The notes: generated by a model from the letters alone, not told the origin. DNA of 62,163 bases, filler included, from 9 parts of 9 records of this genome joined end to end with filler, not necessarily neighbours in it; one strand, 5' to 3'. Numbered from the whole stretch's first letter, positions 4,466 to 62,150 are shown. Made by a program: numbers and translations.

Positions 4466-4565
4466 NNNNNNNNNNNNNNNNNNNNNNNNNNNNNNNNNNN
4501 NNNNNNNNNTTAATTAATTAANNNNNNNNNNNNNNNNNNNNNNNNNNNNNNNNNNNNNNNNNNNN
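4466..4565. other. Artificial contig linker (N44-TTAATTAATTAA-N44)
   Basis: Identical 100-nt spacer with stops in all six frames; repeated at 10519-10618, 14024-14123, 20062-20161, 30110-30209, 46927-47026, 51165-51264 and 57663-57762. Confidence 0.99.
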
Positions 4566-10435: not shown

Positions 10436-10849
10436 GTCTCCGCAAATCGTAAATCAGCGTTACCTCACACAACGTATTTATTTATTATTTACTTCAACGT
10501 CACTACGCGGCCACAAGCNNNNNNNNNNNNNNNNNNNNNNNNNNNNNNNNNNNNNNNNNNNNTTAATTAATTAANNNNNNNNNNNNNNNNNNNNNNNNNN
10601 NNNNNNNNNNNNNNNNNNCTCCAAAAGTCAGGGAATGGCTTGGACCACCCGAACTAATTTATTATAAAATTAATCTGAACAATTGTGGTCAACTCCAGCG
10701 TTACTCCAGGTACAGTACGTGTAATGTAATTGTTGCACCCATTGCATCATAATTATATCATAATTATGGGACCAAGTCATTAGAGCCTGCTCTGCTTGCC
10801 TTGGTTTTGTGGCATGCGGAGAGTTTAACAATCCTTAAGCTCATCAGGA

Positions 10850-13431
10850 TCACTTTTCATCCTGCAATCTATTGTCTTCAAAGTCATCGTCAAGATTGCC
10901 ATGTGAATGCGGAGTGGTGTCGCCTGAACAAAAAGATGTGACAACGTCATTCAAAATTCTAGACACCTGCATGTAGAACCCTCAATTGGACCGAAGAGCT
11001 TGAGCTCCGCATGCTCTGCCGCAGCTTATCCCGCTCATCAGTCGCAGAGCTCAGTCGGTCACGACACCTGAAATCAAACACATCTCACTGGCAACAGGTG
11101 TGAACGCTGACCAGATCAGTGATCCACAGAGCCATTTGACCCATGCGCCTGTTTCATGACGCCAGCCCTCCTCTCGCTCATCTTCGTCGTCGCGGTGTGC
11201 GTACTTGTTAAGCCTCTGAAGCAATTGCTTCTGCTCTTCCTGTCACCAACAATAGGTTTCAGCTACTACTGGGAATCGCAACGGGCCACCTCATCTGCCT
11301 CACCAGCGCGAACGTCCTGCAGTATTCTGATGTCTTCGCTGAGGGCCCCGACATGAGCCTCCAGAACCTGAAAAATGAAGGTACAAGTCATGCTGGACAT
11401 CTATCCACTCGAGGTTGAAAATACCTCAATGGCCTCTGAGGCCTTCATTTCAAATTCTTCATCCTCCAGGTCCTGGATACAATATTCAGACGTATCAAGG
11501 TAGTTAAATTCTTATCAATGGAGCTCACCCCATCTTGCCGCTCGTTGATTTCCTCGAGCAGAAAAATGGCAGGCAAATAGGGATCCACCTCATCCACCCC
11601 TTCCTGACACACAGATGAGACTTCCAGCAAGCTTTGTTGATGTAAACAAAGCACCTGGGCCACGCGTAATTCGAGCTTCTCCAGTACAGGCCAGATGTAG
11701 CCACCAAAGACCAATACCGTGAAGAAGATTACTAATATGGTCGTGGTTAGAATCGTATCACCATGCTGATCTTGGAAGTCTTCACTTGCTTGGAGTGCTA
11801 GAACAAACGCAATAGCACCACGGAGACCGGAGAACCACATTGTGAACTGTTTCTTTGGGCCAATTTTCTTGCTTATGAACTTGTTGAGTATGAAGCTAAG
11901 CGGGTAAATGTTGCATACACGAGCAAAGAGGCAGATCACCTGTAATTTAAGGCAGTTAGGCATCCTGTTAGCATGGTGTTACCATTGCATAGACTGAGAT
12001 GATCACTGTATCCCAGACTTGATTCAGGGTGAAGAGCGCCAGGCCCAGGTATACAAAGACATACGTTTCGAAGATGTGAGCTAATGTCTTGGAGACCTGT
12101 GGCAAAAGAGGTCAGACACTGTAGTCCACAGTTAGAGTACATCTTTGGCAAGGTGGCGGGCATGCGGTGAAATATTGGGTCGCACAAAAATGGACATTGC
12201 AATACCACAGAACAAGATCGTCACAATGCCAGACATTTTGAGCGCCTCCGCAAGCAGATACGCAATGTAGGGTGAAACAAGCACTGCAAAGCCAGGATCT
12301 CAGAATTTGCGCTGCAATGAGGGGCCAATCAATACCTACTGCCAGCTCCGCATGCTCCAGCTCTTCGTTGCCCGCACAGTCCACTTTTTGGCTCATAAAA
12401 GCGAGTAGCAAGGCCATTCCAACACCAATTGCAAATGAAATAGCAAAGATTTCAACAAAATCCAAGACAGCCCAACCGCAGCTCACTGCAGTGAAAGGCT
12501 CGTTCCTGAAGTTGCCCAAGGTGGAGTACAACACGATAGCGACTGCATCATTCAGGACGCTCTCACCAAAAACAAAGCTGAACAGATCAGGGTCTGCCTT
12601 CAGCTTGGAGAAGACTGCCAGCACTGTGACAGGATCCGTTGCAGAGATGAGTGCACCAAAGATGAGGCATTCGAGCAGGCCCATTTCAACAGCTAGACCG
12701 GCTTGGCCGACCAAGTAGAGCAGCCCGCCTACAATGAATGTTGAAATGAAGGTACCAGCAAACGCGTACGTACAGATGGTCCCAAGGTTCCGAAAGAAGT
12801 ATCGGCGCTTCATGTTATAGCCCGCTTCGAAAATGATTGGCGGCAGCAAGACGATAAAAAACACAGATTCGTCAAATTGGACCAGGCTTTCGAAGTATTC
12901 ATTGCCGTGCGTCACCACCAGGAGGAATCCGGCCAACGAGCCTGGCATCGCACGGGTGAGACTGCGGAGTGATGAGTCACCCACCTAGCAGCAGTCCAAC
13001 GCCAGCTTCGCCCAAGTACTTAAACTCTATGCGCGAGAGCTGGAAGCCGATGAGGAACGTCAAAATCAAGAGCGTGGTGTGCAGGACCATCGCGGTGTCA
13101 ATCTTCCGCTTCTCGTCCTCCTCCTCTTTCTGACCACCGGCGCGTTAAGGCCGAGCAGCGGGCAGGCCAGCCCACACCTCCTCGAGGAGTTCTTCGGCAG
13201 TCTCATGCTGCGCGAGCACACCTGCCGGAGCTCAAGATGATCGCTCACCCGCTGGGCGAAATGAGTCAGGCGCGTGCGGGGGGAGGCACGAGCTAGGGCG
13301 ACAGGACCCAAACCCGGCACCTCCACCGTGGGGCGCTAATCATCAAGCAGCCGGCCCCTAGTGCCCCACTCACCCGAGGTGCAGATCAGCAAGAGCACAA
13401 GCAGCAGCTCGGTCCGGGGCAGCGCCACCAT
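10850..13431 (-). CDS. Na+/H+ exchanger (CPA1; NHE8/NHX-like), signal peptide, multi-intron
   Basis: [68 protein letters not shown]; 3' end approximate. Confidence 0.92.
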
Positions 13432-14123
13432 GCTCGGTCCGACGTTGGCGCCCAACCGACTGGTCCACAATGCAAACTATGCGGTGAGCTGTTCGGGTTG
13501 CGACGCAATGCGGGGCGCTTGCCGCTGAAGGCTTGGCGCTGGCACGGGTGTTGTGGCCGGCTCAGTCCGGACCGGCTCTGACCACGCGGACGGTCCCGGG
13601 GGACCTCGGGGCGCAACGTTCACCATCTCGCCGGACTCGCTCCAGTAGTCAGGTGCCAGTCTATGAGACGGAGCAGTCAGTACTGACTTGACTGACACGG
13701 CACCTCCATTGTTGGTCATTTCTGTGATACATATTTTGGTACAGGCGGGCTGCGAGGTGGCGGGAACGTCTAGCTTCGCCTGTGGTGTCCTCCGACGCGC
13801 AGTGTTAGATGGCCAAGCCAAGCTTCGGCCCTGGCTCGGCCGTTCCCAAGTTCGAGCGTAAGATTGGGCTGCACCCTGGCAAGCAGACCGCTCCCCGTCG
13901 CAGCCGCACCACGACCCCGTCCTCGGGAATGCGCGGCTGGTGCGTGCTGCCCCCGCATCTGCTAGGCAGTGACTGGGGAATGTGGCGGCAGGGTGACCGA
14001 CAAGCAGGACCCGTTCACCAAATNNNNNNNNNNNNNNNNNNNNNNNNNNNNNNNNNNNNNNNNNNNNTTAATTAATTAANNNNNNNNNNNNNNNNNNNNN
14101 NNNNNNNNNNNNNNNNNNNNNNN

Positions 14124-20061: not shown

Positions 20062-20161
20062 NNNNNNNNNNNNNNNNNNNNNNNNNNNNNNNNNNNNNNN
20101 NNNNNTTAATTAATTAANNNNNNNNNNNNNNNNNNNNNNNNNNNNNNNNNNNNNNNNNNNN

Positions 20162-29838: not shown

Positions 29839-30546
29839 TTAATACCGGCAGCTCGGCTTTAATTAAGATTATTACAATCAAGATCACTTCATTGCCGTCG
29901 ATGGGGTGTAGAGCTCTACGTACGTGGTATACTCCCAACATATCCCCAACACTCTTGCAGATGTCATTGCTGCGTTTGTGCCGCGCAGGCTCATCAAAGT
30001 CTCACTCTTCTAAGTCGCACAAATTTGCCGTTTTTGCACGTCGCTGCGCTTGGTGGGCGGATAGAGCGGCCACAGTAGTGGCGGCTCTCCTGCTCTGGCT
30101 GGTGGGAGCNNNNNNNNNNNNNNNNNNNNNNNNNNNNNNNNNNNNNNNNNNNNTTAATTAATTAANNNNNNNNNNNNNNNNNNNNNNNNNNNNNNNNNNN
30201 NNNNNNNNNTGGACGGCTACGAGCGATTTGCAACGGTAGATCTAGTTGGCCAACAGGACAGAATCGGTGAGACACACATCACATGGTTTAGTTCTTCTTA
30301 GCTATGCACGAATAGGTGCTCACCCGACACGCAGTAACGCAGGTGGTGCTGCTCGTGCTGCTTTGGTCGCTCTAGTGCTGCTCGAGTACCAATCCTTTTA
30401 CACGAAAAGTGCCATGTAAATGATCATAATCAATCACAAAATTCGTAAGCAAGCAACTAGGCAGATACTAGGCAGATCTGGTATGCAAGATCCTTTTCAA
30501 TTCTATTGACAAAGCTATTTAGAACGATGGCGGTCCTATCGGAGGC

Positions 30547-34293: not shown

Positions 34294-35339
34294 TCAGAAG
34301 AGCACCAGCCGGGTTAGCTGATACAGGACCGCGAGCGCGAGCACGACGAGCACGACGATCAGTACGGCGTACCGGTCCCAGTAGAGCATAGCGAGCTGCT
34401 GTAGGTAGAGCAGGTTCTGCTTCATACTCAGCTTGCTCTCGCCCGCCACCCGCTCCTGGAAGGTGATCCCGACGTCCACCACTGGGTTGCAGCGGCAGCG
34501 GGAGGCCACTTCGAGCGCGATCTTAAACCCGATTGGGTTGATCTTGCTTAGCCCTCGCTCGAGCACCTGCCCAGACTCGCGCGGCCTGCCGGGCCCGCAC
34601 CGGCTTGGAGGTGCAGAAGAAGCCGGACATCGGGTCGGTTGAGCTTGTGAGCGGCCGCGCCAGCAGCGTGGCCACGAAGCTGATCAGTCGTCGGAGCACG
34701 GACCAGTCAAACCTGCCTCGAGTAACCGCTGCCTGAGCCCGCCAGCCCACCCCAGCCCGCCGCCGCCGACGTGCCGCGAGCCGATCGAGAACTCAGCCTT
34801 GCCTTGGAGCACCTGCGCCCGAGTGAGCCTGCCGGCAGGGCGAGGTCACCGGGGCGGCTACTGCCGGGACTGACTCGGGCTCGTGCTGCAGATCGGCGTC
34901 CATGCAGAGCATCACCTGCGCCGGATCGGAGCCGCCCGCCCGCCGCCGCACCGGGTGCTCGGCCTTGGAGAAACCTAGCAGCACCGCGCTGCTCAGCCCG
35001 CGGCCCTCGCTGCCGGCCGGTCGGCCCCCTTGCAGCTGCCGGGCCGCACCCCTTGCGCCGGACGTGAATCTTGATCCCGTAGCCTTCCTTCTGCAGCGCA
35101 GCCACGATCTTCTCGGTCTGCCCCGCCGCTCGGCCCGGCCGGGCGGGGCGGGTGCCTGGGCAGTGCCGGCGCTCTCGTCGTCCATCACCAGAAGCTCGAC
35201 GGTGAGCCCCGCCGCCTGGCCGGGCTAGGCCGGCGGGCAGGGCGGGCGGCGCCTTGGTGGCTTTGAACAGCCGCTCGCACAGCGGCCGGACGTTTTCGGT
35301 CTCGTTGTAGGTCGGGACCACTACCGAGAGCGCCGACAT
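34294..35339 (-). CDS. DPM1: Dolichol-phosphate mannosyltransferase (GT2) with C-terminal TM; 7 introns
   Basis: LSVVVPTYNE, VMDDES, RGLSSAVLLGF, MDADLQH, SIGSRH, DPMSGFF, GFKIALE, GESKL. Confidence 0.9.
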
Positions 35340-35468: not shown

Positions 35469-36109
35469 ATGGAGTTCCAGTGGACCGTGGAGGAGGCTGC
35501 AGGGGAGGCTGTCACCCGCAAGCAGGCGAGAGCCCAGCGCCCGAGCCGCGTGGTGAGCCGGGGGCGCAGCTGATCGAGTACCTGAGCGCAGTCTGCCCCC
35601 CGGCGCTCAAAGACAAGCACAAGATCGTGCCCGGGCGGCTGGGCGGCTGACTGGGCCGGGCAGAACAAGTCTGCACTCAAGAAACTCTCCAAAGACAAGG
35701 CGCTGGCCGCCTACACGGCGCGTCCCGCAGCCGGCCGCAGTCAGCCCGGGCGGCAGGAGCTGCTCAACCCGCCGGCCCCGGACGAGCAGCCCGAGCCCGA
35801 GCCGGCGCCGGCCGAACAAGCAGCCGAGGCGAGCCCAGCCCGGGCAGACGGGCCGAGCGGGGGCAGGCGACGATCACGGTCCACATCAACTTCATAGATC
35901 TCGAGGCCGAACAGCGTGAGCCGGTCGGGCTGGAGGTGCGGCCGAGCGAGAGCCTGGGGGCGGTCAAGCGGCGGATCGAGCAGCGGGAGGGGATCCGCGC
36001 CGACTCGATCATTCTGTTCAATAGACGCAACCCGAGGATGGCAAATGATAGCTCGCTGGCCGACTACAAGATTGAGGATGGTGCCAGCCTCCACCTGCAG
36101 ACCCGATGA
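35469..36109 (+). CDS. BTHB (FKBP25 N-terminal-like) domain + ubiquitin-like domain protein; 3-4 introns; missed by the ORF track
   Basis: Spliced MEFQWTVEEAAGEAVTRKQ|LIEYLSAVCPPALKDKHKI|NKSALKKLSKDKALAAYT|ELL; C-terminal LEVRPSESLGAVKRRIEQREGI...SLADYKIEDGASLHL. Confidence 0.7.
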
Positions 36110-36489: not shown

Positions 36490-39453
36490 ATGAAGTCAGT
36501 CCTCCTGTTCGGGCTCCTCGTGCCAGCGGCAGTGCTGGGCGGGCCTGGTATGATCAACCCCGGCACCCCCTCCGGGATCAGCGCCAGTTTCGATTGTAAG
36601 GCGCGGCAGGCGGCCTGGGAGTACGGCAAGTCACTCATGCCTTCCCGGGGCCAATTCCGCAGTCTGTTCGACGCCATGCAGCTCCAAGCCTGCGGGCTGC
36701 CCACTCCGACCGAGCTGGACCAGTGGACACCGCCACGCACCGCCCTCCCGGCCGACCGGCCTCTCTTCTTCGCCGACGCCGCCAGTGGGAGCGATGGGGC
36801 CGGCAACGGCACGGTCCAGGCCCCTTTCGCCACGGTGGCCAAGGCGGTGGCGGCGGCATGCGCTGGGCGCGGGGCGGCGGTGCTCCGGGCGGGCACCTAC
36901 TACACCGATACGGTCCAGATCGGGCCGGAGTGCGCTGGGCTGCGGCTAGTCAATTACCCGGGCGAGCGGGCGGTGGTCTCGGGCGGGGTGCCGCTCCGAC
37001 TGCCCAAGCAGGCCTGGCGGGTGCACAAGCGCGGGAGCGGCGGCTGGAAGCTGTTTGAGAACCAGAACAACGTGTACGGCAGAGCTGTAGCCGGCAACGA
37101 CACCGACAGCATCAAGTACGTAGGGAGCTTTGACTCGGTCCAGGACTGCCAGGCCGCGCTGGCCGCCCACGGACAGTTCCGCTCGTTCAGCTGGCACACG
37201 CCGCAGTTCGCCGGGCCGTACAGCCGCCAGTGTTTTGGGGTGACCGACGACTCTTGGGCGCCGACCGCAGAGCGAGGGGTGCTCTCGGGACTGAAGGATG
37301 ACCAAAACACGTGGGTGGCCACACTGGCGGGGCAGGCGGCCGAGGTGCCCGGGCTCAGGCTGGCCGGCGAGCGGATGATCCGGGCCAAGTATCCGAACGG
37401 GAATATGGAGCTCTCGGGCAACTGGCTCAAGGGCGCCGGGGCCTCGATGGGTGGAGGCGACTACTCGCAAGGCTGGGTAACTGCAGACACCAGCTGGGTG
37501 CCGCCCTTCCGCCGGCCGGATTCTGACGAGATCGTGGCCACCGACGCCGACTGGCCTGACGTGGAGTGGCCGCACTACGAGGGCTCTCAGACCGGCGAAG
37601 GAGACCAGGGAGAGTTCCACATCGGGATCGGCGGTTACTGCCAGCTCGACCTGCAGGATCCTCTTGTGGGCCCTTCCGGGTACTGGTGCGCTATGAACCC
37701 GCCGCGCGGCCAGTGCTGGGACCGGGCGAGCAACACCGGCCGGGGCTGCACCCAGACACACATGAGCCCCGACGGAGTTGTGTTTGCGAGAGCAGCCAAC
37801 TATTCGGACCCTTCAACGGCTGTGGTGCTGGCTTGGCGAGGCGGCGGGCGCTGGTTCACTCAGATGTGGCGAGCGACCGAGTTTGTGCGGGCGAATAACT
37901 CGCTGATGTTCGACCCGACCACCGGAGGCCAGGGCGGTGAGGGGATGACCTCCGCCAGGCAATGGTGGATCGAGAACGTGAAGGAGGAGTGCGACTCGGC
38001 CGACGAGTTCTTCTATGAGAAGAAGTCCGATCAGCTGTACTTCAACTTCAACGGCTCTGCCGGCCCGACAGGCCAGGAGGAGTGGGTGGCCACCAGAACC
38101 AGAGTGCTGTTCAACATCTCTGGCTCGATGCAGCAGCCAGTCCGGGATGTGACCATCAGCGGGCTCACCCTACGCGACACCCGACTGACCTACCTCGACG
38201 CGCACGGGATGCCCAGCGGAGGTGCGCGCCCGGGCAGCGGCCGGGTGAGTGCTGGCAGGTGACTGGGCGCTGCAGCGGTCAGGTGCTGTCTTCCTGCAGG
38301 GCACGGAGAACGTGACTGTGGACAGCTGCCTGATGACCCGGCTGGATGGGAACGGTGGCCCGAGCAGCCTGGGCCGGGCTGACCAGAGCCTGCAGCCGTG
38401 TTCCTGTCTGCGTACAACCGGCACGCCACTATCTCCAACAACGAAGTGAGTTGGAACGGCGATACCGCTTTTGCTGCCTGGGGGATCACCGGAACTTGCC
38501 TCAACCAGAATTGCTCCAACAAGCTGCCCTACCCAGTCGGCCCCGACGGCCGAGCCGGCGAGCAGCCCAGATTCACTTCGGTGGTGGGCAATCTGGTGCG
38601 CGAGATTGGGATCTGGCAGAAGCAGAGCTCGATGTGGTTCCAAGCAATCGCCGCACAGACTTACATTGCGAGGAACGGTCCGACGCTCGCTCTGGCTCGG
38701 CTCAGTCTGACTGCAGTGCACTTCAACGGACCGAGGGCTGGGATAAACATGAACGACGGATTCGGCGGGGCTGATGTGATTGAGAACAATCTGCTGACCA
38801 ACTGCGTGCGAGAGTCGGGCGATCATGGCCCTTTCAACTCGTGAGTGGCCTGGGGGCCGACTGCTGAGCTGGTGCCAAGGTGGGATCGAGTGCCTTACAT
38901 TACTGACATTGCGACACCTGGCAAACCGAGCGTCATCCCGGCCTGGCGGCACATCAGGCGCAACTTCATCATGTCGCTGTACAGCTCGCAGGAAGCCATT
39001 GACACCGGTACGGCTGGCTGCTGTTCTGGCCGAGCCTTTGGCAGACGACGGGAGCGCCTACTACAAGACCTATGAGAACTTCTTCGTGTATGCGGCTAAC
39101 GGGCTCAAGTCAGACTTCAACGGACATGACAACGAGCACTACCGGAATGTGTACGCGTTTGTACAAAACTGCTGGGGCAATGGGAACAATGACTGGTGAC
39201 TGGTTAGGAACGCCCGCTGCAATTGAGCGGGTTGGGCAGGTTCGTGAACAACAGCTGCGTGGCGGGCAAGGATCACGGCAGCTTCAGCTCGGATTGCCAC
39301 AAGTCCAGCGGGATGCATGTTTCGGGCAACACGATCTACAACAAGGACGGCGCAATGGATTGGCAAGTATGCGACAAGACCAACACAGCAGCAAAGGTCC
39401 CCTCCGACGACGATATCATCGAGATGGGTAAAAAGGTTATTGGCTGGGTTTAA
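36490..39453 (+). CDS. Secreted right-handed beta-helix protein (GH141-like) with PAN/apple-like insert; multi-intron
   Basis: Signal peptide; GSDGAGNGTVQAPFAT, LRAGTYY, YPGERAVVSGG, RAKYPN, ENVKEECD, NGPRAGIN, RESGDHGPFNSWDR. Confidence 0.75.
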
Positions 39454-39602
39454 CTAGGATCAACTACCTAGGATGGAAGTACTACCAAGTCATAAGAGTA
39501 TAGGCCGCTATACGTACAGTCATGTACTCGTAATGTGTGGTTTATGTTAGGTTTATGTGATCTGAATTATTTTTATGGGTACCTTGGTTCATTTGATCAA
39601 AT

Positions 39603-42600
39603 CTAAATGTACATAACGACGTGCTGTTCTAAGTTTCCCAGGCCCTCCTGAATAATCATCAAAGTCATCGAAGTCCCATTCGGTCGAGATAACCACCTTG
39701 CTGTATGATGGTGGGTGGGTTTGAACTGTTGGGCTCCTTCGGTGGCGCTTGTTGATAGCCCGTTTGGAGCTTGGCTTTGAGTCCTCGCAGTCGATTTCGG
39801 ATGTTGAAGCCAGTTATGGATCCTTTCGATTCGGATGGCGCAGTGTGAACTAAGCCGGGCGCTAGGTGTGCTGTGTGGTTTTCTTCGCCTCCAGCAGGAA
39901 TGTGTGCGGTGTAGTCCCGAAGCACTGCTTCCACCTGGTGACAAAGCAATTAGTTGGAAGGGTGGTCGACTTTAACTTCGTGTCAGGGCCTACTAAAGAG
40001 CAGAGGGCCGGTTAATGACCTCTCGTCGGTCTAGACTGGCCAACATTGAAAGCACTTGTTTGAACTCGGTTGGATTTCCATTCGCTACAAGCTGCGAATA
40101 TCTGATTTGGCGGCTCAGCCGCTTATGACGGCTCAGGCTGATGGACCTTGCAGCCATGGAGGCTTTGTCGGCGGTCAAAGTCTCGAGTATTCCGATGATG
40201 CGCTGCATGGCGTGCATTGCCAATTGGATCCCTGCAGGCTCTCCAGCCTCGAGCAACGGCTCAGGATAATCCATGTCGATCAGAATGATCTGAATCGTGG
40301 CCGAATCGTTCAGCAATTGCTGTACATCTTCTACGCTCAACTTTGTGCATCTGAAACGGGAGCATAAGATAGCACTCTACAAAGCAGGCACCGCAAAATC
40401 TGACATAAGTATGCCTGAGTAAATTGTGTCACCAGCTCCGCAGCAACTAAGTCAAAGCTATCATCCAACAAGTGTTTTGCCTGCAGCCAGGCGCTCCAGT
40501 GCCGTGAGGCTAGGCCCGCACCATCATCTGGGTGTGCTGCTTCATCACTGCAGCAAGGTCGTCCACGTACCTTGAACACCTTACATAGACCCATCAGGCG
40601 CGCGGGTCAGGCAGCACAACACACCCTCCCCCAAACCCACTGCCCTCGAGTCCAAGCTGTTGCTGCTGGACTGATGCCTCCTGCTTGGCTTTCCTACCAC
40701 TGAGGCCTCAGTCAGGAATCTCGAGGCTTGGCACCTTGGCCGTTTGCTTGCACTTGTGCTTTCAGCCACTCGGGATAGAACAGGCGACAGGTCTTTCATC
40801 ACAACTCCGACTCCCTGATACCAGGCTCAGAAGCGAGACAGCCTTACAACATTCGCCGTTTTTATTGCCCTCTGTTGAGCTTCCAGAAACACGTCCCAGC
40901 TTCTAAGTGCTCGCCCGCTGTCCCCACTCCTCTTCTGCAGTGTCGACTCGAGCTCAGCTGCAGTGTCCTGTGATCAAGGTTGTCAGTAAGCTGGCGCTTA
41001 AGCCGCTGTTACCGCACAATACTTGCCAGTATTCACTAAATGGTACAGTGTTTGAACCCTATAAGCTGAATTGTCCGCCTGACAGCAGCCGCTCGGCACT
41101 CGTGCCAAGATTTGAAAACACCTGTGCTCGCAAGAACTTTCCATATGCTGTGAGTGCAGGTCGGTATGCGCATCTGTACAACTCCTCTAAAAGTATCGAT
41201 TGGCTCACCTTGGAACAGCTGACCCCACAGCCTCGCCCGCCTGGTGCTCGCAAGCTCACCGCAGTAAGCTGGACCGTATGGCCGGGAAGAGCTCGCAGCT
41301 GCCGCTCAGCACCCGAACCTGTCGAGTATCAGCAACTCGCAGCTCAGCCGGACTGATCCAGCACACGACTCGACTAGACTCCTGATTAGACACCTGGTCG
41401 GTGCTGGCTAGTCCTGCCTCCGGATCTGTGATGCTCGACACCAACTGGTTCAGGCCAGCAGCCTCTGCCTCTGCGTACAGGGGCAGGTAGGGCACGAATG
41501 CCTCAGTCATGCTACCCTCAAACACCTACCGGGGCCACGTTGCTCAGCCAACTCCGCGCGCGCACCGCGTGTTCTTCCTCCGGCTGCTCCGCCTCACGTA
41601 TTTCCGTCGGTCCGGTTGTTTGGGTTGGCTCTGGCTTACCCGATAGACCAGCAGGCGGCTGTTCAAGAGGCCAGGGCTCGATCTCTGGCAGATCGCGACT
41701 GCTCGACTTGGGCGGCATACCAGGGCCTGCTCAGAGGAGGTCATGGCCCGGCCGATGCGGATCGGACCCAGCGGAGGGCTTGGCTCGGCCCCTCGCGTGG
41801 TAGTGCAGTTCATGCTCGGCATCGTGGGCTGCAGCGACGGCATAACGGGCTCAGCGAACAGCTCCGGCGCAAATGGATTCTGCAGAACGGATCCGCCGGT
41901 GCAGCAGGCCAGTGCCAGGGTACCTGCCCAGCGTTGGGCTGTGCTGCTGGCTTGATCTGGGCCGGGGCCGAGGCAGGCTGGCTGGCTGCTGGCTCGGCGC
42001 TGCTCGGTCCAGCATCAAACGAGGTCCTCGGGCTCCGCTGCCGTTCAGCCTGAGCCCGCCCGGCCGGCAGTCGGTGCCTTCCGTCGAGGCGGGAATCGTG
42101 CTTCAAGCTCCTTCTCAAACTCGGACGCTTTGACCAATCCTGTGACCAGTCTTGAGACCGCAGTCGGCTCCCGGTGCTGCACACTGCTCGAGCCTCCCCC
42201 CGCGCGCGCACCTGATCGAACGTGGCGTGCAAGTCGCTCGCCAGCCGCTCGCGCATCTGTCTGCAGAAGAGCAGCGCCGTCGCCCGCCAGGCTTCCCACT
42301 TGGCCGGGACGCACTGCCCGTACTCTCCTTCCCACAGAGCCACCTGCCCCAGCTCGCCCACCCGCCGGCCCGCAGGCTCGCCTTGCGCCGGAAGCAGCTC
42401 AGATGGGCCTCGAGCTCAGTCAGCGAGTCCCGGCCCTGCCCGGCCTCCTGGCTCACCCGCTCGCAGTGTCCCTCCGCCAAGGTCTCGACCGCCCGGTGCA
42501 CGCAGCCCGACCCGAACGCCTCCACCAGTCTGCACAGCTCGCGCACGAAGGTCTCGGTCCATGTGCGCTGCTCCGGCCGCCAGTCCAGCTCCGGGAGAGA

Positions 42601-42870
42601 TCCGAACTGGGCCTGGGCCTGCATCTGGAGCACCTGGCGCATCAAGCTGTACTGCTGGAGCAGCTCCGGCGCCTGCTCGTCCTGCCGCTGCTGGTTGACG
42701 ATGATCGCGCTCAGCCGCTGGATCTCGGTCACCGCGGCGGCGCACTCGGAGAGCGGCAGCTCATTTAGCGGGAGCCCGGCCACCGAGACCAGCCGGGCGA
42801 GGGCGGCGGCCAGGCGCTGGGTGAGCTTGCCCGTGCTCATCGTGCTCGCGTTCAGAATGGCGGCCTTCAT
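39603..42870 (-). CDS. VPS53-like (GARP/EARP subunit), divergent, multi-intron; 3' end approximate
   Basis: W..WRATALLFCRQMRERL, ASEFEKELEARF, FEGSMTEAFVPYLPLYAEAE, SCELFPAIRSSLLRCSKVS, VQQLLND match the Vps53 block order. Confidence 0.65.
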
Positions 42871-43002
42871 GCTGCGGCCACCAGCCGGGAGCCGCGGTCT
42901 CTCACCCCAGGCCGGGTGGTCGTTCCGTTACTTCAAGGTTGCTCACTTCCTGACTGGCCCGCGCGACCTGCCTGTGGCAGAGCACCAGCAAAGCAGGCAG
43001 CG

Positions 43003-43736
43003 ATGGACTCAGCTACGAAGGAGACGCTCAAGAAGATGCCACTGCTCAAGGTGCCGAGCTGCGGTCACGGCCCAGCCGGACGCAGGTGAACGCCGGGCCT
43101 CGGGACGACCCAGCCAAGTGGAACCAGCGGCTCAAGGAGGAGATCGCCACCCTGATCGCGGTGCCCCGACGGCCCGAGCCTGGCCGGACCGGGCCGGGCA
43201 GTACGTCAATCTGTGCACTGAGATGGACAACCAGTGGTTCAACCTGGAGCCGAGCGAGGACGGGCTCCGGTGCGGGCTGCCGGCTGCGGGCGGCCGACCG
43301 GGTGGCAGCTGGTGGGGCAAAGTGTGGATCTATCACGAGATGCTTAAATACGAGTTCGACATTGAATTCGATGTGCCGGTCGGCCTGGCCCTGAGCCCTG
43401 AGCCCGGCCGCAGATCCCAGTGACCTACCCGAGCACCTCGCCCGAGCTGGCGCTGCCCGAGCTCGATGGCACCACGGCCAAGATGTACAGGTGCCCTCGG
43501 CCCCGGAGGGCAGGCTCAGCCGGCGGGCAGGGGAGGCAAGATCTGTCTGACGGACCACTTCAACCCTTTGTGGGCTCGTAACACGCCGCACTTTGGGATT
43601 GCGCACGCCATGTGTCTCGGGGTGCCTGCCTCACGCCTGCCCCGACCCACCGCTTGCTCAGATGGCGCCCTGGCTCGCCGCAGAGGTCCCCTGCCTGGTG
43701 GAAGCCGGCAAAATAGCGCCCGTGGGAGACAAGTAA
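43003..43736 (+). CDS. UFC1: UFM1-conjugating enzyme 1; 6 introns (43051-43085, 43161-43201, 43270-43308, 43373-43413, 43491-43530, 43622-43661)
   Basis: [75 protein letters not shown]. Confidence 0.96.
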
Positions 43737-46773: not shown

Positions 46774-47640
46774 TGAATTGAGCTCTAATTCTGGTCAAAA
46801 TTAAATGTGGAGCTGAGCACTCGCGCTCTGCCGGTGCTCTGTCAACTACTGTAATTACTTCTCGCTTTAAATACATTCGACGTCTTTTCTTCAGCCGCCT
46901 GGTAGGCGTCGCTTGCGGTAGTAGCTNNNNNNNNNNNNNNNNNNNNNNNNNNNNNNNNNNNNNNNNNNNNTTAATTAATTAANNNNNNNNNNNNNNNNNN
47001 NNNNNNNNNNNNNNNNNNNNNNNNNNCCGCCATCCTAAGCCCCATCCCAACCGCACACTCGCCCGGGCTGCCATCCGCGAGCCCGGATCCGAGGCACAGG
47101 CCGGCGGCAGGCGCCGGGGCGGCCGGGGGCGGGGGGCGGCCGGGGGCGGGGGCGGGGGCGGGGCAGTACCGCCGGCCTTCTTGCCGAAGAGATCTTTGAA
47201 AGCGCCGAGCATTATTTACTGCGCCCCCGCGGTCAAGCCTGCGCGGTTGCCCAGGGCCGGGCGGGCGGGGGAGGCGGGGCAGAAGCACACCTGACGTATG
47301 CGCACCCTGCTGTTGGTGGAAGGGCAAACTCTCAGACAAACGCTCGGTCCAGATCAACGGCAAGACAGCAATCCTCAGGTCTCTGTCTGGCCTCCGTCGA
47401 GTCGTGAATTCATGGTACGGTCAGCTCGTCAGCTGACGGTTGTACGGGGTAAATAGGTCGTAGAAATACATGTACAGTAGCCACGATTACGTTTTAGTAT
47501 TGCACACGGGGTTGAATGGAGTCGACTCTACAACGGCCCAAGATAGCATCAACCCGCCGGCGTCGACGAGTACCGCAACACCACGACACCGCGAATATTG
47601 GTCACAACTCAGTTGTACATGTAAGTACTGAAGGCCGGGT

Positions 47641-51164: not shown

Positions 51165-51481
51165 NNNNNNNNNNNNNNNNNNNNNNNNNNNNNNNNNNNN
51201 NNNNNNNNTTAATTAATTAANNNNNNNNNNNNNNNNNNNNNNNNNNNNNNNNNNNNNNNNNNNNTTGCGACGAATCCCGAGCTGAGGCTATATCGCCCTC
51301 TTATGTTCCTGACGTCCTCTGTTGTGAATGTTGGTGCAAAGTCATGTGTTACTGGGGTTGTTTTGATTAATTATAAACCGGTAGGATCATATGATTATAA
51401 AACTCACTCACTCACTCACTAAGTCTTACAGTGTACATGTACTCGTACTCACCCAAAAAAGGATTAATAATAGTAAATTAA

Positions 51482-55089: not shown

Positions 55090-55350
55090 ACGCGCTGACG
55101 TCAATAGTGAAAACTTGTAGAAAACTAGCGTGCTCGGCTTACTAGTGAATGTCAGCGGTAGTTAGTCTCCATTAAGTCTCCTTCTCTGTACGTTCTCGGC
55201 GTTCTCTACCGGTCTTGCGTAGGTCCTGCGCTATCTTGCCGGCGGCTCGGTTGGGTCAGTAGTACAGTAGTGTACTGATGAGCCGTTACTTGGTACTTTA
55301 ATACTGGTCAACAACCCTTGGCACCAAGAACGGTCAGCGGCACGGAGAGG

Positions 55351-56445
55351 ATGCGGAGGGCAGTCCAGCGCTTCTTCCATTCCGATCGGCGGCTCGGAGG
55401 GCCCATCCGGCTCCCGCCAGGGCTGCCTGCCGGCGAGGCGGTGCGTATCGGCTGTGCGCTGGCTGACTGCCGGCAGCTGGTGCAGGAGGGCATCCCCCGG
55501 CTGGCTGACAGTGCGGCCGGCTCAGCCTTGCGGGTGGCTGTGCTCAATCTGATGCCGCTCAAGGAGCAGACCGAGCTGCAGCTGGCCCGGATGCTCGCCC
55601 AGTCCCCGCTCCCAGGTGCCACCCCTCCGGGCTCGAGCGATCCGCTCCGGGCCAGTCGAGCTCACGCTGCTGGTGCCGGACGGAGCCAGGAACAAGAACA
55701 CCGCCCCCGAGCACATCAAACGGTTCTACTCCAAGTTTTCGGAGGTGGAGGGCGAGCGGTTCGATGGGGTGGTGGTGACCGGGGCGCCGGTGGAGCACCT
55801 GCCGTTCGAGGAGGTGCTTTACTGGGAGGAGCTTTGCCGGGTGTTTGACTGGATCGAGAGCAGCCAGGCCTGCATGTACAGCATCTGCTGGGGGGCGATG
55901 GCCAGCCTGTACCACTTCCACCGGGTGCCCAAGCACCTGACCGCCACAAAGCAGTTTGGGCTGTTTGAGCACGCGGTGACCCAAGGCCACCAGCTCACAG
56001 AGCAGGTCGGCCAAACAGTCCGGATCCCTGTATCCCGGCACACCGAGTGGCGGGCGGCCGACATGGCCCATCTGCCGGCCGGTGTGCAGGTGCTGATCCA
56101 CTCGGACCGGACTGGGCCGTGCGCGATCTGGGACCAGAACCTAAAGCATGTTCACATGATGAATCACTTTGAGTACGACCATGACACGCTCGACCAAGAG
56201 TACAAGCGTGACGTGGCCAAAGGCACCCCGACCGGTCCGGCTAGGCTATCAATCAGGCTCACTGATTGCAGGCGAGCCAATTGCAATACCCGAGAACTAT
56301 TACCCGGCCGATGACCCTGACCAAACCCCAGGTCAGTGCCGGCCCGAATGGCAGCTACTGACGGCCGGCAGGGCATGCTTGGCGGGAAGACGGCAGGGCG
56401 TTTTACTCCAACTGGCTTCAAATCGTGGCAGATAATGCAAAGTGA
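55351..56445 (+). CDS. metA: Homoserine O-acyltransferase, MetA family (likely acetyltransferase); about 4 introns
   Basis: VLNLMPLK..TE.QLAR, FDGVVVTGAPVE, YWEEL, ICWGA, SRHTE, HFEYD, EYKRD, PENYYP.DDP, FYSNWL. Confidence 0.92.
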
Positions 56446-57662: not shown

Positions 57663-57905
57663 NNNNNNNNNNNNNNNNNNNNNNNNNNNNNNNNNNNNNN
57701 NNNNNNTTAATTAATTAANNNNNNNNNNNNNNNNNNNNNNNNNNNNNNNNNNNNNNNNNNNNTTTTGTAAGATGTGTTTTGTAAGATGTGCAGACTATCC
57801 TCCAACCGTCCGTTGTGCGACGAGATCAGTGTCGACGCGGCGCAGGCTGCAGACTGTGTCGGCGGCTACACGGTTTGAGGAGACGGCTGGGAGGCCTGAG
57901 GCGGG

Positions 57906-60900
57906 ATGGAGGCCAGCCTGGAGGCCGACTTGGGCCGGGTGGCTGAGCTGAGCTCTATGGGGTACGTGGCGCTCAAGGCGCACCTCAAGGCCTCCGGCAA
58001 GGTCGACCCTGCCGCGGTGGACCGGGCGCTATCTAAGCAGGAGCTGCTCCGCCTGGTCTCCGGCGAGCCCGAGCGGCCGGAGCAGCCGGTGACGTGGCTC
58101 AAACCGGAGCATCCGGTCACATGGATCCGACACACGTGTGACCGGCGGCACTGGATCCGGCGCACCGAGTTGATGAAACTGTGCGCCTCGAGCAGCTACG
58201 CCAACCGGCCGGGCGGGCCGGGATTTCCATCGGTGGAGGAGCTGGCTGGGATGGACCCAGCTCTGCTCAACGGGCAGATGCTCGACTGGCACAGCACCCC
58301 GCTCTGTCTGGCTGCCGACAGCGGGCACGTCCTGGCGGTGGAGCGGCTGCTGGCAGCCAAGGCCGACCCGAACTGCCTTCCGGTCAAGACCACCAGGGAC
58401 GGCGGGGGCAGCCGGCTCCGGCTGACGCCTCTGCACTTTGCGGTCCGGTCTGGCTTCCACAGCGCTGTCCCGACCGAACATCGCGCCCGGACAGTGCGAG
58501 CGCTGCTCGAGGCCAGTGGTCGGGACCTCAACGTGCGGTGCGATCGGTCGGGCGCCACGGCGCTCTCGCACGCGGTGCAGTGCAAGACACGCTTGAGCGT
58601 GCGCCAGCTGCTGGCCTGTCCCGACATCGACCCCGACCTGCCGGACCACGACGGCGTCTGCCCGCTGCTGCACGCCGTGCTGCTCAGGAGTGAGCAAATG
58701 GTGGCCGAGCTACTTGACCCCCCTGGCCGGCTCAACGTCAACTTCACCTGCGCCGAGGTCCAGCACAGGACAGCGCTCCACCTGGCGAGTACCGCGCCAG
58801 AGAGCCGGTGGGACATGCTCGGATGGCTGCTCAATCAGCCGGCGGTTGCACTGGACCCTGCCGACCTCGAGGGCCGGACTCCCTTAATGTACGCTGCGAT
58901 TTCCGGCCAGATACACGCCGCCTCGCGGCTGATTGACGCCGGCGCCCAGATCAACCTCTGCGACAGCCCTACCAGCGGCGGCCAGCCCCGCACCGCGCTA
59001 GACTATGCCAGCAAGCACCAGCACACGGAGCTGAGTCGGTTGCTGGCCGAGCGAGGGGCGGTCTCAGCAGACCTAGTGGAGCAGCTGCATGCGGCGGCGG
59101 CCAGACAGGACCAGACCCGGTGCGTTGAGCTGATTGAAGCCGGAGTGGACCTGCACAGCCTAGACGCGGACGGCCGGTCACCCCTCGTGCGGGCTGCGAG
59201 CAATGGCTGGGTCGATTCCGTTAGGATCGTGCTCAATCTGGCGGACCAGTCTACCCCCGAGGCAAACTGCGCGCAAATCCGGCTGGCGATGGTGGCAGCT
59301 GTGCAGGCGTCCGACGTCGAGATGGCGAGGTGCATCTTGGACCACCCAGCCGTCGATCCCAAAGCGGCGTGCCTGGGCGAGACGGTTGAGGGGCAACTGG
59401 GCGGGCTCGCCATCAATCCCGAGGTGCACAGTAAGCCGGTGCTCTTGCTGGTAATCGAACAGTCGCCGCGAGATGGAGAGCATGCGGCCCGGCTGTTGTC
59501 AGTGTGCCAGGCTGTGGTGTGTCGATGTCCACAATCGGTGGACCAGCTAGTTTCAGGCCGGGACACCGTGCTGGTCCTGGCCAGGGGCAGCCCTAACAAC
59601 TTGATCAGGCAGTGGGCGTCGGCGTACGGCTCGTACTTAGGAAGGTATAAGCTGTTGGCCGAGCAGCCTGAGCATAAGAGCGCCACTTGCGAGGTGTGGC
59701 GAGCGCAGGACACGATTGAGCTCAAGGAGGTTGCCCTGAAAATTGTTGCGGAGCGAGAACATTTCGAATCCGAGGTGCTCTGCCGGGTGAACAAGGGCGG
59801 CTCCAGGCTGGACGACAGCTACGTGCTGGATCTGGTTAGGACTCACGTGCCTCCGGGGTTTGTGTCGGACTATGTGGGACAGACGGTGGACTGGCTTGTG
59901 GACGCCAGCCACTGCTCGACGGAGGAAAGCTTTGTGCTGTGCATGCCTTGGGCCGATAGGAACTTGGCTCAGATCGCCGTGATGGAGCGCGTGGCCGGGA
60001 TCAGCCTTGACACGATCATGGAAATCTCAGCACAGTTTGCCAGGGGACTGCAATATTTACACCAGAATGATCTAATCCACGGTGATGCCAAGCCCCGAAA
60101 CGTGGTCAGGATAAACGGACGATTCAAGCTGATTGACCTCGACGCGTCTGCCAGTTTTGACCAGCCGTGTGGTAAAAAGTTCTCGGAGGCTTACGTGCCT
60201 CCAGAATTCATGCGGCTGCTGCTGCCGACCAGGGCGCAGCACAAGGGCCTCAGCAAGCACCCGCACCCGACGATACCCGCCAAGCCGTCCTTCGACATTT
60301 GGCAGTTCGGGGTGGTTTTATTCGAGCTGCTGTCTGGTGCAGATCTGTTCCCAAAGGATTTCAACGACGACACAATTTGTCTCGCCGAGGACTGCCACAA
60401 GCTGGCAACTTGGACAGAGCCGCCGCCCGAGAAACTCGACTTGGTGCTCAGATCTGCGAGCGCCACACCCGTGCGGTTGATGATGGCCCGGGACTTGCTC
60501 TCCCTCTGCCTCCAGGGATCGGAAGAGAACAGGCCGGCCTCCATGTGCAGCATATTGGCACATCCTTTCTTCTGCGCACCGGACCTGCCGATTGCATCCT
60601 TGCCTTCGGATATGAGGCTGCCAGATACAGTGGACGTGGTCTTCAGCTACCAGAGCACGCAAGTGGTGTTCCTCCGCAGGATCAGGAGGGCACTCAACGC
60701 ACTAGGGATTGCAACGGCAGACGGGACTCAAGTGCCCGCAGGCCACGACTGGAGGGCTTGGTACTTTAGCAAGGCCAACAAGGCGGCCCTGTTCATCCCC
60801 ATTTGCAGCCCTAATCTATTTCGTTCGAGCGCGTGCTTCGAGGAGGCGCTGTGGTGCATGAACATGAACAAGCCCGTGATCAGACTCAACTACGACCAGC

Positions 60901-62150
60901 CGGGGTTCGACGGGCTGATGAATGACCCCGGAAATAAGAGAAACAGCGAGACGCAGGGCCAGCCGGGCTACCGCTCCATGCTCGCCGGCTGCCCGGCTGT
61001 CCCAGAGCTCGGCCAGTTCGATCTCGGATTCTTTGCCAACCTCAAGAAGCTGGTTGACGTGATCATCGGTCGGCTCCCAGAGCGGCCTCGGCCTCGAATC
61101 CACCTTGTCTGCGCTCCAGACCCGCAGCAGCGCGAGTTCTCGTCCTCTTTGAGTGAGAAGCTGTGCGCGCAAGGGTTCGACGCGAGGGTGCTCGACGCTG
61201 CTGCGCCTGACCAGCCTGCGGAGGTTTGCCTGCCGGTGATTTCTGGGGGCTTGCTCCAGTGTCCAAATGCGAGCGAGCTCCTCCAGCTAGAGCAGGAGAA
61301 CAAGGCGCAGTGGCTGCCGGTGCTGTACGACATCAGTTCGTTCTATTCGGCGAGAAGCTGCTACAAGGACTCTCCGGACACAGCACTGAGAGTGCCCCAT
61401 CTCCTGAGCATTCTCAATACCGCTAATCGAACGCCACCCAGTAGCAACTTCACTGACAATTACCGCGACAACTTTGATACGCTGCTGGCGGCGCTGCGGC
61501 GGCTGGTTTTGATGGATCGGCAGCCGCGAGCTCGGCTGGCACACTACCTGCCCAAGTTTAGCACTATACTCCACGGCAGCCCAAAGCTACCTAGCTCGGG
61601 CATCCTGTCGCCCGACTGCTTTGATGACTCGATGGACGAGCTAATGGGCTTGATCCGGCCAATCAGACTGAAGGAGGCCCTGCCGCACAACCCGGCAGAA
61701 ACCAGCTCATCGGTGCGTGGCCCTGTAGTAGTGGTGTCGCATACCTCAGCAAAGATCGAGCTGCTGCGATCGGTAGTGGAATTCCTCAAGGGCCAGGGGC
61801 TCACCGTGATCTTCCATGAAGACCCCGACCCCCTTGAGTGGTTTGACGACTGTGACGACGCAAGTGTGTGCCTATTGTGGATCACGCGCGACTTTGTGGC
61901 CACGGCGTGCGGATTGAACTCTCAACGGCTGCAGTCCCAGATGACGTTTGCCAAGGACAACCGGCTGCAGTTGATTCCTTTGATGGCTGAGAGCGTCAGG
62001 TTGGAGGTCGACTATCTGCTGTCGAACCGCGGCCAGGAGATGCAAGACCTAATGGCGCTGCTGCAACAGAAGGAGGAGATAATTCAAAATCAGCAAAGCG
62101 AGTTGAGAAGATTACAACAGCTAAGAGGCGGCCCCCCAGCTAGTTTATAG
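57906..62150 (+). CDS. Ankyrin repeats - protein kinase - three TIR-like domains - coiled coil; intronless, 1414 aa
   Basis: TPLCLAA/TPLHFAV/TALHLA/TPLMYAA ankyrin repeats; VALK, HGDAKPRN, LIDLD, YVPPE, DIWQFG kinase; DVVFSYQ...FIPICSPNLFRSSACFEEA...KPVI TIR, plus two further TIR-like blocks. Confidence 0.88.
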   Translation: MEASLEADLGRVAELSSMGYVALKAHLKASGKVDPAAVDRALSKQELLRLVSGEPERPEQPVTWLKPEHPVTWIRHTCDRRHWIRRTELMKLCASSSYANRPGGPGFPSVEELAGMDPALLNGQMLDWHSTPLCLAADSGHVLAVERLLAAKADPNCLPVKTTRDGGGSRLRLTPLHFAVRSGFHSAVPTEHRARTVRALLEASGRDLNVRCDRSGATALSHAVQCKTRLSVRQLLACPDIDPDLPDHDGVCPLLHAVLLRSEQMVAELLDPPGRLNVNFTCAEVQHRTALHLASTAPESRWDMLGWLLNQPAVALDPADLEGRTPLMYAAISGQIHAASRLIDAGAQINLCDSPTSGGQPRTALDYASKHQHTELSRLLAERGAVSADLVEQLHAAAARQDQTRCVELIEAGVDLHSLDADGRSPLVRAASNGWVDSVRIVLNLADQSTPEANCAQIRLAMVAAVQASDVEMARCILDHPAVDPKAACLGETVEGQLGGLAINPEVHSKPVLLLVIEQSPRDGEHAARLLSVCQAVVCRCPQSVDQLVSGRDTVLVLARGSPNNLIRQWASAYGSYLGRYKLLAEQPEHKSATCEVWRAQDTIELKEVALKIVAEREHFESEVLCRVNKGGSRLDDSYVLDLVRTHVPPGFVSDYVGQTVDWLVDASHCSTEESFVLCMPWADRNLAQIAVMERVAGISLDTIMEISAQFARGLQYLHQNDLIHGDAKPRNVVRINGRFKLIDLDASASFDQPCGKKFSEAYVPPEFMRLLLPTRAQHKGLSKHPHPTIPAKPSFDIWQFGVVLFELLSGADLFPKDFNDDTICLAEDCHKLATWTEPPPEKLDLVLRSASATPVRLMMARDLLSLCLQGSEENRPASMCSILAHPFFCAPDLPIASLPSDMRLPDTVDVVFSYQSTQVVFLRRIRRALNALGIATADGTQVPAGHDWRAWYFSKANKAALFIPICSPNLFRSSACFEEALWCMNMNKPVIRLNYDQPGFDGLMNDPGNKRNSETQGQPGYRSMLAGCPAVPELGQFDLGFFANLKKLVDVIIGRLPERPRPRIHLVCAPDPQQREFSSSLSEKLCAQGFDARVLDAAAPDQPAEVCLPVISGGLLQCPNASELLQLEQENKAQWLPVLYDISSFYSARSCYKDSPDTALRVPHLLSILNTANRTPPSSNFTDNYRDNFDTLLAALRRLVLMDRQPRARLAHYLPKFSTILHGSPKLPSSGILSPDCFDDSMDELMGLIRPIRLKEALPHNPAETSSSVRGPVVVVSHTSAKIELLRSVVEFLKGQGLTVIFHEDPDPLEWFDDCDDASVCLLWITRDFVATACGLNSQRLQSQMTFAKDNRLQLIPLMAESVRLEVDYLLSNRGQEMQDLMALLQQKEEIIQNQQSELRRLQQLRGGPPASL

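Follow-up and report, generated by a model that had tools for sequence, protein, structure and literature searches.

How is the 3' end of an intron located when the whole intron spans about 40 nt, consists largely of G and C, and carries no pyrimidine tract before its terminal AG? The question is raised by a gene for the Ufm1-conjugating enzyme UFC1, whose introns a preliminary description had taken, together with those of a DPM1 gene on the same contig, to be spliced by a ruler from the branch point. We deduced splicing in the surrounding 62 kb of DNA from homologues, Pfam coordinates and statistics.

The analysed window

The window, by which we mean the whole stretch of DNA that was analysed, comprises 62,163 bases in which nine contigs are strung together by eight 100-base linkers. 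Each linker is made of 44 N, TTAATTAATTAA and another 44 N.

4466-4565, linker 1
10519-10618, linker 2
14024-14123, linker 3
20062-20161, linker 4
30110-30209, linker 5
46927-47026, linker 6
51165-51264, linker 7
57663-57762, linker 8

Because the contigs are joined by linkers, genes that adjoin across one are not true neighbours and might differ in organism. The UFC1 and DPM1 genes and a gene for a beta-helix-type protein share one contig (30210-46926). GC content varies along the window from 0.49 to 0.71 (2-kb bins). An Rfam scan of the window for snRNA genes returned no families.

Exon sizes in the window span a wide range. An open reading frame (ORF) of 1,416 codons at 57900-62147 (+ strand) combines ankyrin repeats, a protein kinase domain and a TIR domain without an intron, and several further genes have uninterrupted exons of 1.5-4.2 kb; in the small housekeeping genes UFC1 and DPM1, exons measure 48-91 nt.

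Six mini-introns in UFC1

The UFC1 gene occupies 43003-43736 on the + strand and is divided into seven exons by six introns, listed here in order with the position of the branch-like A relative to the intron's last base, the 5-mer around that A and the 3' end:

43003-43050, + strand, exon 1
43051-43085, + strand, intron 1: 35 nt, GC 0.77, A at -12 (CCCAG), 3' end CGCAG
43086-43160, + strand, exon 2
43161-43201, + strand, intron 2: 41 nt, GC 0.85, A at -14 (CGGAC), 3' end GGCAG
43202-43269, + strand, exon 3
43270-43308, + strand, intron 3: 39 nt, GC 0.85, A at -12 (CCGAC), the sole A apart from that of the terminal AG, 3' end GGCAG
43309-43372, + strand, exon 4
43373-43413, + strand, intron 4: 41 nt, GC 0.80, A at -13 (CTGAG), 3' end CGCAG
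43414-43490, + strand, exon 5
43491-43530, + strand, intron 5: 40 nt, GC 0.82, A at -13 (CTCAG), 3' end GGCAG
43531-43621, + strand, exon 6
43622-43661, + strand, intron 6: 40 nt, GC 0.72, As at -13 (CCCAC) and -17, 3' end CTCAG
43662-43736, + strand, exon 7

Cutting out the six introns leaves an ORF of 498 nt, that is, 165 codons plus a stop. When exon pieces were scanned singly, five of six matched the Pfam UFC1 family (PF08694) at consecutive profile positions (14-35, 60-80, 81-105, 107-136 and 137-154); the exon 3 piece had no Pfam match on its own and fits the profile gap at 36-59. Using the in-frame stretch 43202-43372 as a query, we retrieved four UFC1 proteins from transcript collections, in a cluster that includes one named Telonema subtile. 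Spliced alignment with six homologues, mostly transcript-derived, yielded the identical six introns every time, at 86-94% identity. The nearest named protein, T. subtile transcript protein P0007, matches spliced UFC1 at 155 of 165 residues; the host of the gene is a marine protist with Telonema as its nearest named relative.

Together, the contiguous Pfam coordinates and the six spliced alignments bear out the UFC1 junctions of the preliminary description, with all six lengths as it gave them (35, 41, 39, 41, 40 and 40 nt). Its statement that these introns are very GC-rich is borne out by values of 0.72-0.85, and every one of the six starts with GTGC.

Two features of the locus are recorded here as side observations. 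Retention of intron 3 (43270-43308) would keep the frame, introduce no stop and add 13 residues. Head to head with UFC1 lies a 270-codon ORF without a Pfam match (42118-42927, - strand); the two start codons are about 130 bases apart, which suggests a shared bidirectional promoter.

A verified set of 22 introns

Four further genes yielded introns whose boundaries could be set by homology:

about 34294-35338, - strand, DPM1 (dolichol-phosphate mannosyltransferase) gene with seven introns
35216-35252, - strand, DPM1 intron 1, 37 nt, GC-AG
35118-35155, - strand, DPM1 intron 2, 38 nt, GC-AG
35010-35049, - strand, DPM1 intron 3, 40 nt
34916-34951, - strand, DPM1 intron 4, 36 nt
34813-34849, - strand, DPM1 intron 5, 37 nt
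34713-34750, - strand, DPM1 intron 6, 38 nt
34567-34600, - strand, DPM1 intron 7, 34 nt
36514-39447, + strand, beta-helix-type protein gene (homologues with PF22842/PF07602), six introns after a long first exon
38222-38258, + strand, beta-helix-type gene intron 1, 37 nt
38355-38395, + strand, beta-helix-type gene intron 2, 41 nt
38678-38716, + strand, beta-helix-type gene intron 3, 39 nt
38841-38879, + strand, beta-helix-type gene intron 4, 39 nt
39008-39044, + strand, beta-helix-type gene intron 5, 37 nt
39196-39239, + strand, beta-helix-type gene intron 6, 44 nt
55616-55655, + strand, intron of an HTS/MetA-type (homoserine O-succinyltransferase) gene, 40 nt, nearest A at -16
1338-1384, + strand, protein kinase gene intron 1, 47 nt, A at -17
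1556-1609, + strand, protein kinase gene intron 2, 54 nt, A at -12 (TGGAT) or -19 (CTGAG)

With UFC1, these genes make up a verified set of 22 introns in five genes, all with boundaries fixed independently of branch or tract features. Spliced alignment of DPM1 with eight homologues, two of them from T. subtile, recovered introns 1, 4 and 5 with all eight and introns 2, 3, 6 and 7 with seven of the eight. The DPM1 lengths agree with the approximate range of 34-41 nt described previously. That description had missed the first two DPM1 introns, where no GT is on offer at the donor and the intron starts with GC. Every DPM1 intron has an A at -11 to -13. In the beta-helix-type gene, five introns were placed by 8/8 homologues and the one at 38841-38879 by 7/8; an extra candidate at 39443-39479, supported by one of eight, was dropped. 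For the two remaining genes, profile coordinates fixed the junctions: PF04204 is matched at 27-62 before and 64-255 after the HTS intron, and the Pkinase profile runs from 1 to 101 before kinase intron 1 and resumes at about 102, then reaches about 157 before kinase intron 2 and continues at 158. A homologue search with a UBR-like ORF gave no more than 31% identity among its strongest matches, too distant to fix junctions.

The HTS/MetA (PF04204) gene (55282-56311, + strand) thus carries at least one mini-intron of 40 nt. This family is best known from bacteria, and the gene is possibly an old gene transfer that later acquired or retained introns.

Composition and splice-site ends

The verified introns are 34-54 nt long (median 39) and are composed of 0.41 G, 0.36 C, 0.13 T and 0.10 A. 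They are also more GC-rich than their surroundings: in 22 of 25 cases, counting three introns of a Na+/H+ exchanger gene described below, GC content exceeds that of the flanking 60 + 60 nt (0.74 versus 0.60, about 13 points). Intron GC above exon GC is the reverse of the usual pattern.

At the 5' junction, G is the final base of the exon for 20 of the 22 introns. The intron then opens with GT in 20 and GC in 2, with GTG in 18 and with GTGC in 12; the GTGC start described for these introns thus extends to all of UFC1 but fails for most of DPM1, where 3/7 have it. GC donors, observed in 2/22 verified introns, may be unusually common in this DNA. Further matches to the motif model introduced below also start with GC (35718-35756, 35829-35866 and 42344-42381). 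The 3' end is AG in all 22 introns and CAG in 21, and the earlier statement that most end in GGCAG or CGCAG applies to 16. Position -4 is G in 18 (p = 3e-5 against the interior G frequency) and position -5 is G in 14.

Judged by their GT/GC...AG ends, and by the fact that their removal restores an ORF collinear with homologues, the 22 introns are best explained as genuine spliceosomal introns of the major (U2) type. Minor (U12-type) introns have a 5' [AG]TATCC start and a TCCTTAAC branch motif; 0/22 combined the [AG]TATCC start with TCCTTAAC, and this assignment was rejected. We also discarded the idea that RNA structure holds the intron ends together, as the mean folding z-score was -0.10 and 4 of 22 introns fell below -1; in addition, no covariation was seen between positions +k and -k in the 22 introns for k = 5-9. 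G-triplet enhancers were likewise rejected, with GGG depleted relative to shuffles (32 observed versus 47.4 expected). Intron length is not divisible by three in 17 of the 22; the 5/22 that are divisible compare with about 7 expected, which in so small a sample gives no clear sign of frame-breaking selection.

A positioned A, a first-AG pattern and a missing tract

An A stands at -11 to -14, followed by 10-13 nt, in 20 of the 22 introns. When intron interiors were shuffled, none of 20,000 shuffles reached 20 introns, whether this fixed window or any 4-nt window was scored (maximum 17), which puts the spacing, at the 10-13 nt of the preliminary description, far beyond chance. Per position, there are 6 As at -11, 6 at -12, 6 at -13 and 3 at -14, and just 5 in all from -3 to -10. 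Over all 22 introns, the branch-like A is followed by a mean of 11.7 nt (sd 1.6). The spacing is a band of several values, with no single exact distance. The exceptions are the HTS intron and kinase intron 1, whose nearest A lies at -16 and -17, respectively (15-16 nt after the A), and kinase intron 2 has a poor context at -12.

Three introns contain no A other than the branch-like one and that of the terminal AG. Read from the 5-mers, the base two positions upstream of the branch-like A is a pyrimidine in 20 of 22 introns, the base three positions upstream is mostly C, and the bases on either side of the A are mostly G or C, giving a context of roughly C-Y-S-A-S; the branch consensus is yUnAy. 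From the sequence alone, we infer that the A near -12 is the branch point. The degeneracy of the motif had been recognised at the outset, but the five 5-mers then proposed (CTGAC, CCGAC, CTGAG, CTCAG and CTCAC) are correctly placed in just 8 of 22 introns, and the signal is looser than they imply. The distance from the 5' splice site to the branch-like A is also narrow, at 23-30 nt in 21 of 22.

The AG used is the first one at least 7 nt past the branch-like A in 22/22 introns. AGs at offset 1 from that A (12 introns) and at offsets 4 and 6 are skipped, and in eight introns a further AG within 10 nt of the start of the exon goes unused. The spacer, measured from two bases past the A to position -4, is composed of 0.47 G, 0.35 C, 0.15 T and 0.03 A. 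With a pyrimidine fraction of 0.50, it holds no pyrimidine tract in these 22 GC-rich introns; the absence of a tract that had been noted for UFC1 and DPM1 is a property of the whole verified set.

Recurrence of the design within the window

For a replicate set, we used a periodic-Markov spliced-ORF search, which returned no introns in controls and has loose boundaries; it served this purpose only. Relying solely on coding potential and G+C content, it added 14 introns between 34 and 50 nt long, some of which, on the minus strand at 44.2-45.0 kb, are probably false positives. Here, 11 of 14 have an A at -11 to -14, a level reached by 8 of 20,000 shuffles. A codon-only version of the spliced-ORF search was abandoned as too noisy (78 introns in real strands versus 42 in reversed controls).

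A motif model built on the 22 introns was then scanned across the window, counting non-overlapping matches with a score of at least 6. It gave 55 matches, of which 12 are training introns that match by construction; the corresponding figures for Markov resamples and for the reversed sequence were 12.7 and 9. The matches fall in at least seven of the nine contigs. A plain count of GTGC...CAG pairs had no length peak, as both words are common. Taken together, the replicate set and the window-wide matches indicate that this intron design is common in this DNA, a statement that covers 62 kb and not a genome.

A low-GC gene with T-rich spacers

A Na+/H+ exchanger gene on a low-GC contig (10619-14023) speaks against a lineage-wide loss of the tract. 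Its three introns are slightly longer than most of the others and have a GC content of 0.42-0.50:

12284-12335, - strand, exchanger intron, 52 nt, branch motif CTGAG at -17
12097-12140, - strand, exchanger intron, 44 nt, branch motif CTGAC at -16
11940-11982, - strand, exchanger intron, 43 nt, branch motif CTAAC at -17

Across the exons of this gene, the reading frame, the Pfam coordinates and the numbering of residues in solved exchanger chains all continue without a break. Their spacers are T-rich, for example CTCTTTTGCCA, and among all 25 introns T-rich spacers are confined to these three. Over the 25, spacer T drops as intron GC rises (Spearman rho -0.79), and the distance from the A to the intron end shortens with rising GC (rho -0.44). 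The T-rich spacers of the exchanger gene suggest that the tract is dispensable here rather than abolished. This contig is tied to the rest by linkers only and may come from another organism, in which case the argument from tract persistence would fall.

Mini-introns as old introns reduced in size

With the T. subtile UFC1 protein, 21 related metagenome loci were found, and nine were aligned, chosen because their match extended over more than the coding length or because identity was high. Between them, loci of other lineages (L011, L019, L020 and L021) have introns, 53-163 nt long, at five of the six UFC1 intron positions. L020 has introns at four of the six positions (69, 56, 131 and 95 nt), L019 and L021 have two UFC1 positions in common, and L011 has the first. 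The sharing of positions with other lineages shows that the mini-introns are old and shrunken, not newly inserted, and the longer introns of L020, in DNA with a GC content of 0.49, indicate that shrinkage and GC enrichment are recent and lineage-specific. An introner or transposon origin was rejected on the same shared positions and on a mean pairwise identity of 0.379, compared with 0.376 in shuffles. The UFC1 locus of L020 (L020:33-743) encodes 95 of 120 residues identical to the T. subtile protein.

How the 3' splice site may be chosen

We favour, with a probability of about 60%, an ordinary major spliceosome acting on near-minimal, GC-rich introns, such that the spacing reflects a lower steric limit together with pressure for minimal introns. 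Each mini-intron would be recognised as one unit through a weak 5' site, G/GTG(C) or occasionally G/GC (slash, exon-intron boundary), and a degenerate branch site of roughly C-Y-S-A-S. The branch A would lie 23-30 nt from the 5' end and have 10-13 nt after it, and the 3' site, usually in GGCAG, would be the first AG to lie outside a short excluded stretch that follows the branch. With its 7-9 nt and high G content, the spacer cannot serve as a pyrimidine tract, so that site would be located by its closeness to the branch and not via a tract. As the distance from the 5' site to the A is narrow too, the steric floor of minimal introns can suffice and no special ruler is needed. The ruler from the branch point proposed in the preliminary description is partly supported: the narrow A-to-AG distance and the first-AG pattern are as a distance or first-AG rule would have them, but a steric floor accounts for the spacing equally well, and the two predict an identical sequence pattern.

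A rather unlikely alternative, the stronger form of the altered or reduced U2AF dependence put forward in the preliminary description, is that the lineage no longer relies on the U2AF large subunit and a tract for recognition but on a genuine ruler starting at the branch point. A 7-9 nt spacer with 47% G and just 15% T would fit such a change, as would the narrow distribution of branch-AG distances and the preference for G at -4 and -5, where other eukaryotes favour pyrimidines. There is also a human precedent, in that SPF45 takes the place of U2AF on short introns with truncated tracts (10.1101/784868). Against this, the low-GC exchanger gene in the window still has T-rich spacers behind branch motifs of the classical kind. 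Spacer T also follows local GC (rho -0.79), as base composition alone would predict, and the equally constrained distance between 5' site and branch speaks for overall minimisation rather than a device specific to the 3' end.

We consider it quite improbable that the A near -12 belongs to an extended, protein-bound 3' splice-site signal, with branching at an upstream A or at a non-adenosine. The degenerate context would be in keeping with this, as only 8/22 introns match the 5-mers originally proposed, and in 12 of the 22 the A is itself part of an AG and so looks like a decoy acceptor; moreover, usable branch sites are reportedly missing from human G-rich ultra-short introns (PMC4463651). In three introns of our set, however, there is no other A besides that of the terminal AG. 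The low-GC introns also show textbook CTGAC and CTAAC motifs at a similar place, and the pyrimidine found two bases before the A in 20 of 22 introns resembles yUnAy.

That the segments are not introns at all, being assembly or frameshift artefacts or coding insertions, is very improbable indeed. UFC1 intron 3, at 39 nt, is in frame and free of stops when retained, but all 22 segments have GT/GC...AG ends, and 17 would disrupt the reading frame if retained, their lengths not being multiples of three. None of the UFC1 and DPM1 segments is present in the transcript-derived proteins of relatives, and relatives have longer introns at the same positions.

Relation to known intron types

Introns of about 25 nt occur in Paramecium and of about 15 nt in Stentor, and tiny introns are also found in nucleomorphs. 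The mini-introns resemble these ciliate and nucleomorph introns in their near-minimal length, narrow length distribution and intron definition. The ciliate and nucleomorph introns are AT-rich, more so than their exons, whereas the mini-introns are 13 points GC-richer than the flanking exons. Yeast and mammals choose the 3' site on a first-AG basis (scanning or proximity) and pass over AGs in an exclusion zone next to the branch; the mini-introns behave alike, using the first AG beyond a few bases in 22/22 and skipping nearer ones. The branch-AG distance in these model systems ranges widely, over about 10-40 nt, whereas the mini-introns are held at its lower end.

Irimia and Roy (2008, PMC2483917) document tract-less introns whose branch is anchored relative to the AG in Trichomonas vaginalis, Giardia lamblia and Yarrowia lipolytica, along with a constrained distance between branch and AG in several hemiascomycete yeasts. 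The first three share with the mini-introns the lack of a 3' pyrimidine tract and the constrained branch-AG distance. Since the tract is, on that evidence (PMC2483917), not universal among U2-type introns, its absence here is compatible with U2-type membership. The species of the Trichomonas, Giardia and Yarrowia type are intron-poor, with strong, near-invariant branch motifs and an exact spacing of 2-4 nt (or 5-10 nt) (PMC2483917). By contrast, the mini-introns sit in intron-dense genes (six in the 498-nt UFC1 coding sequence and seven in DPM1) and combine a degenerate motif with a 4-nt band, in which 10-13 nt follow the A, and about 80% GC.

Human cells provide another close precedent. G-rich ultra-short introns of 37-65 nt are described as rare exceptions (PMC4463651), and short introns with truncated tracts as dependent on SPF45/RBM17, which replaces U2AF (10.1101/784868). 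Human short introns are like the mini-introns in length (around 40-56 nt), in having G as the commonest base, in their weak or absent tract and in their weak splice-site scores, and a bypass of the tract-binding role of U2AF has been proposed for them (PMC4463651, 10.1101/784868). They differ in three respects: human G-rich introns are rare, whereas mini-introns look like the default in the GC-rich genes here; G triplets form the core of the human enhancers but are not enriched in mini-introns; and several human ultra-short introns have no recognisable branch site, whereas the mini-introns have a positioned A.

A tract-less, GC-rich mini-intron design is thus uncommon but not unprecedented. 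What sets the present case apart is that intron-dense genes, introns GC-richer than their exons, G at -4/-5, frequent GC-AG donors and a degenerate branch motif confined to a 4-nt band occur together. A literature search at the level of search results found no description of the nuclear intron structure of telonemids.

Implications

For the rare human G-rich ultra-short introns, it is an open question how a large spliceosome copes with some 40 nt of sequence, weak sites and a missing tract. Here, such introns seem routine, and the A about 12 nt before their end gives them a clear positional mark; lariats could be mapped and splicing factors surveyed in this organism or in cultured relatives of it. 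Constrained branch-AG spacing has so far been tied to intron-poor genomes with strong motifs, whereas in this DNA it accompanies intron-dense genes and a degenerate motif. In practical terms, genes of this kind will be mis-annotated by gene finders whose training introns are AT-rich and bear a tract, and GC-AG donors (2/22) must be allowed.

A bolder proposal, which we regard as speculative and doubtful, is that tract-less, GC-rich ultra-short introns are the default of a telonemid-like lineage in its GC-rich, intron-dense genes, that their 3' site is measured from the branch, and that the U2AF large subunit has lost its tract-binding role or ceded it to another factor, such as an SPF45-like UHM protein. 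If true, this lineage would offer, at the scale of a whole genome, a natural model of how human G-rich ultra-short introns are spliced, which is still unexplained.
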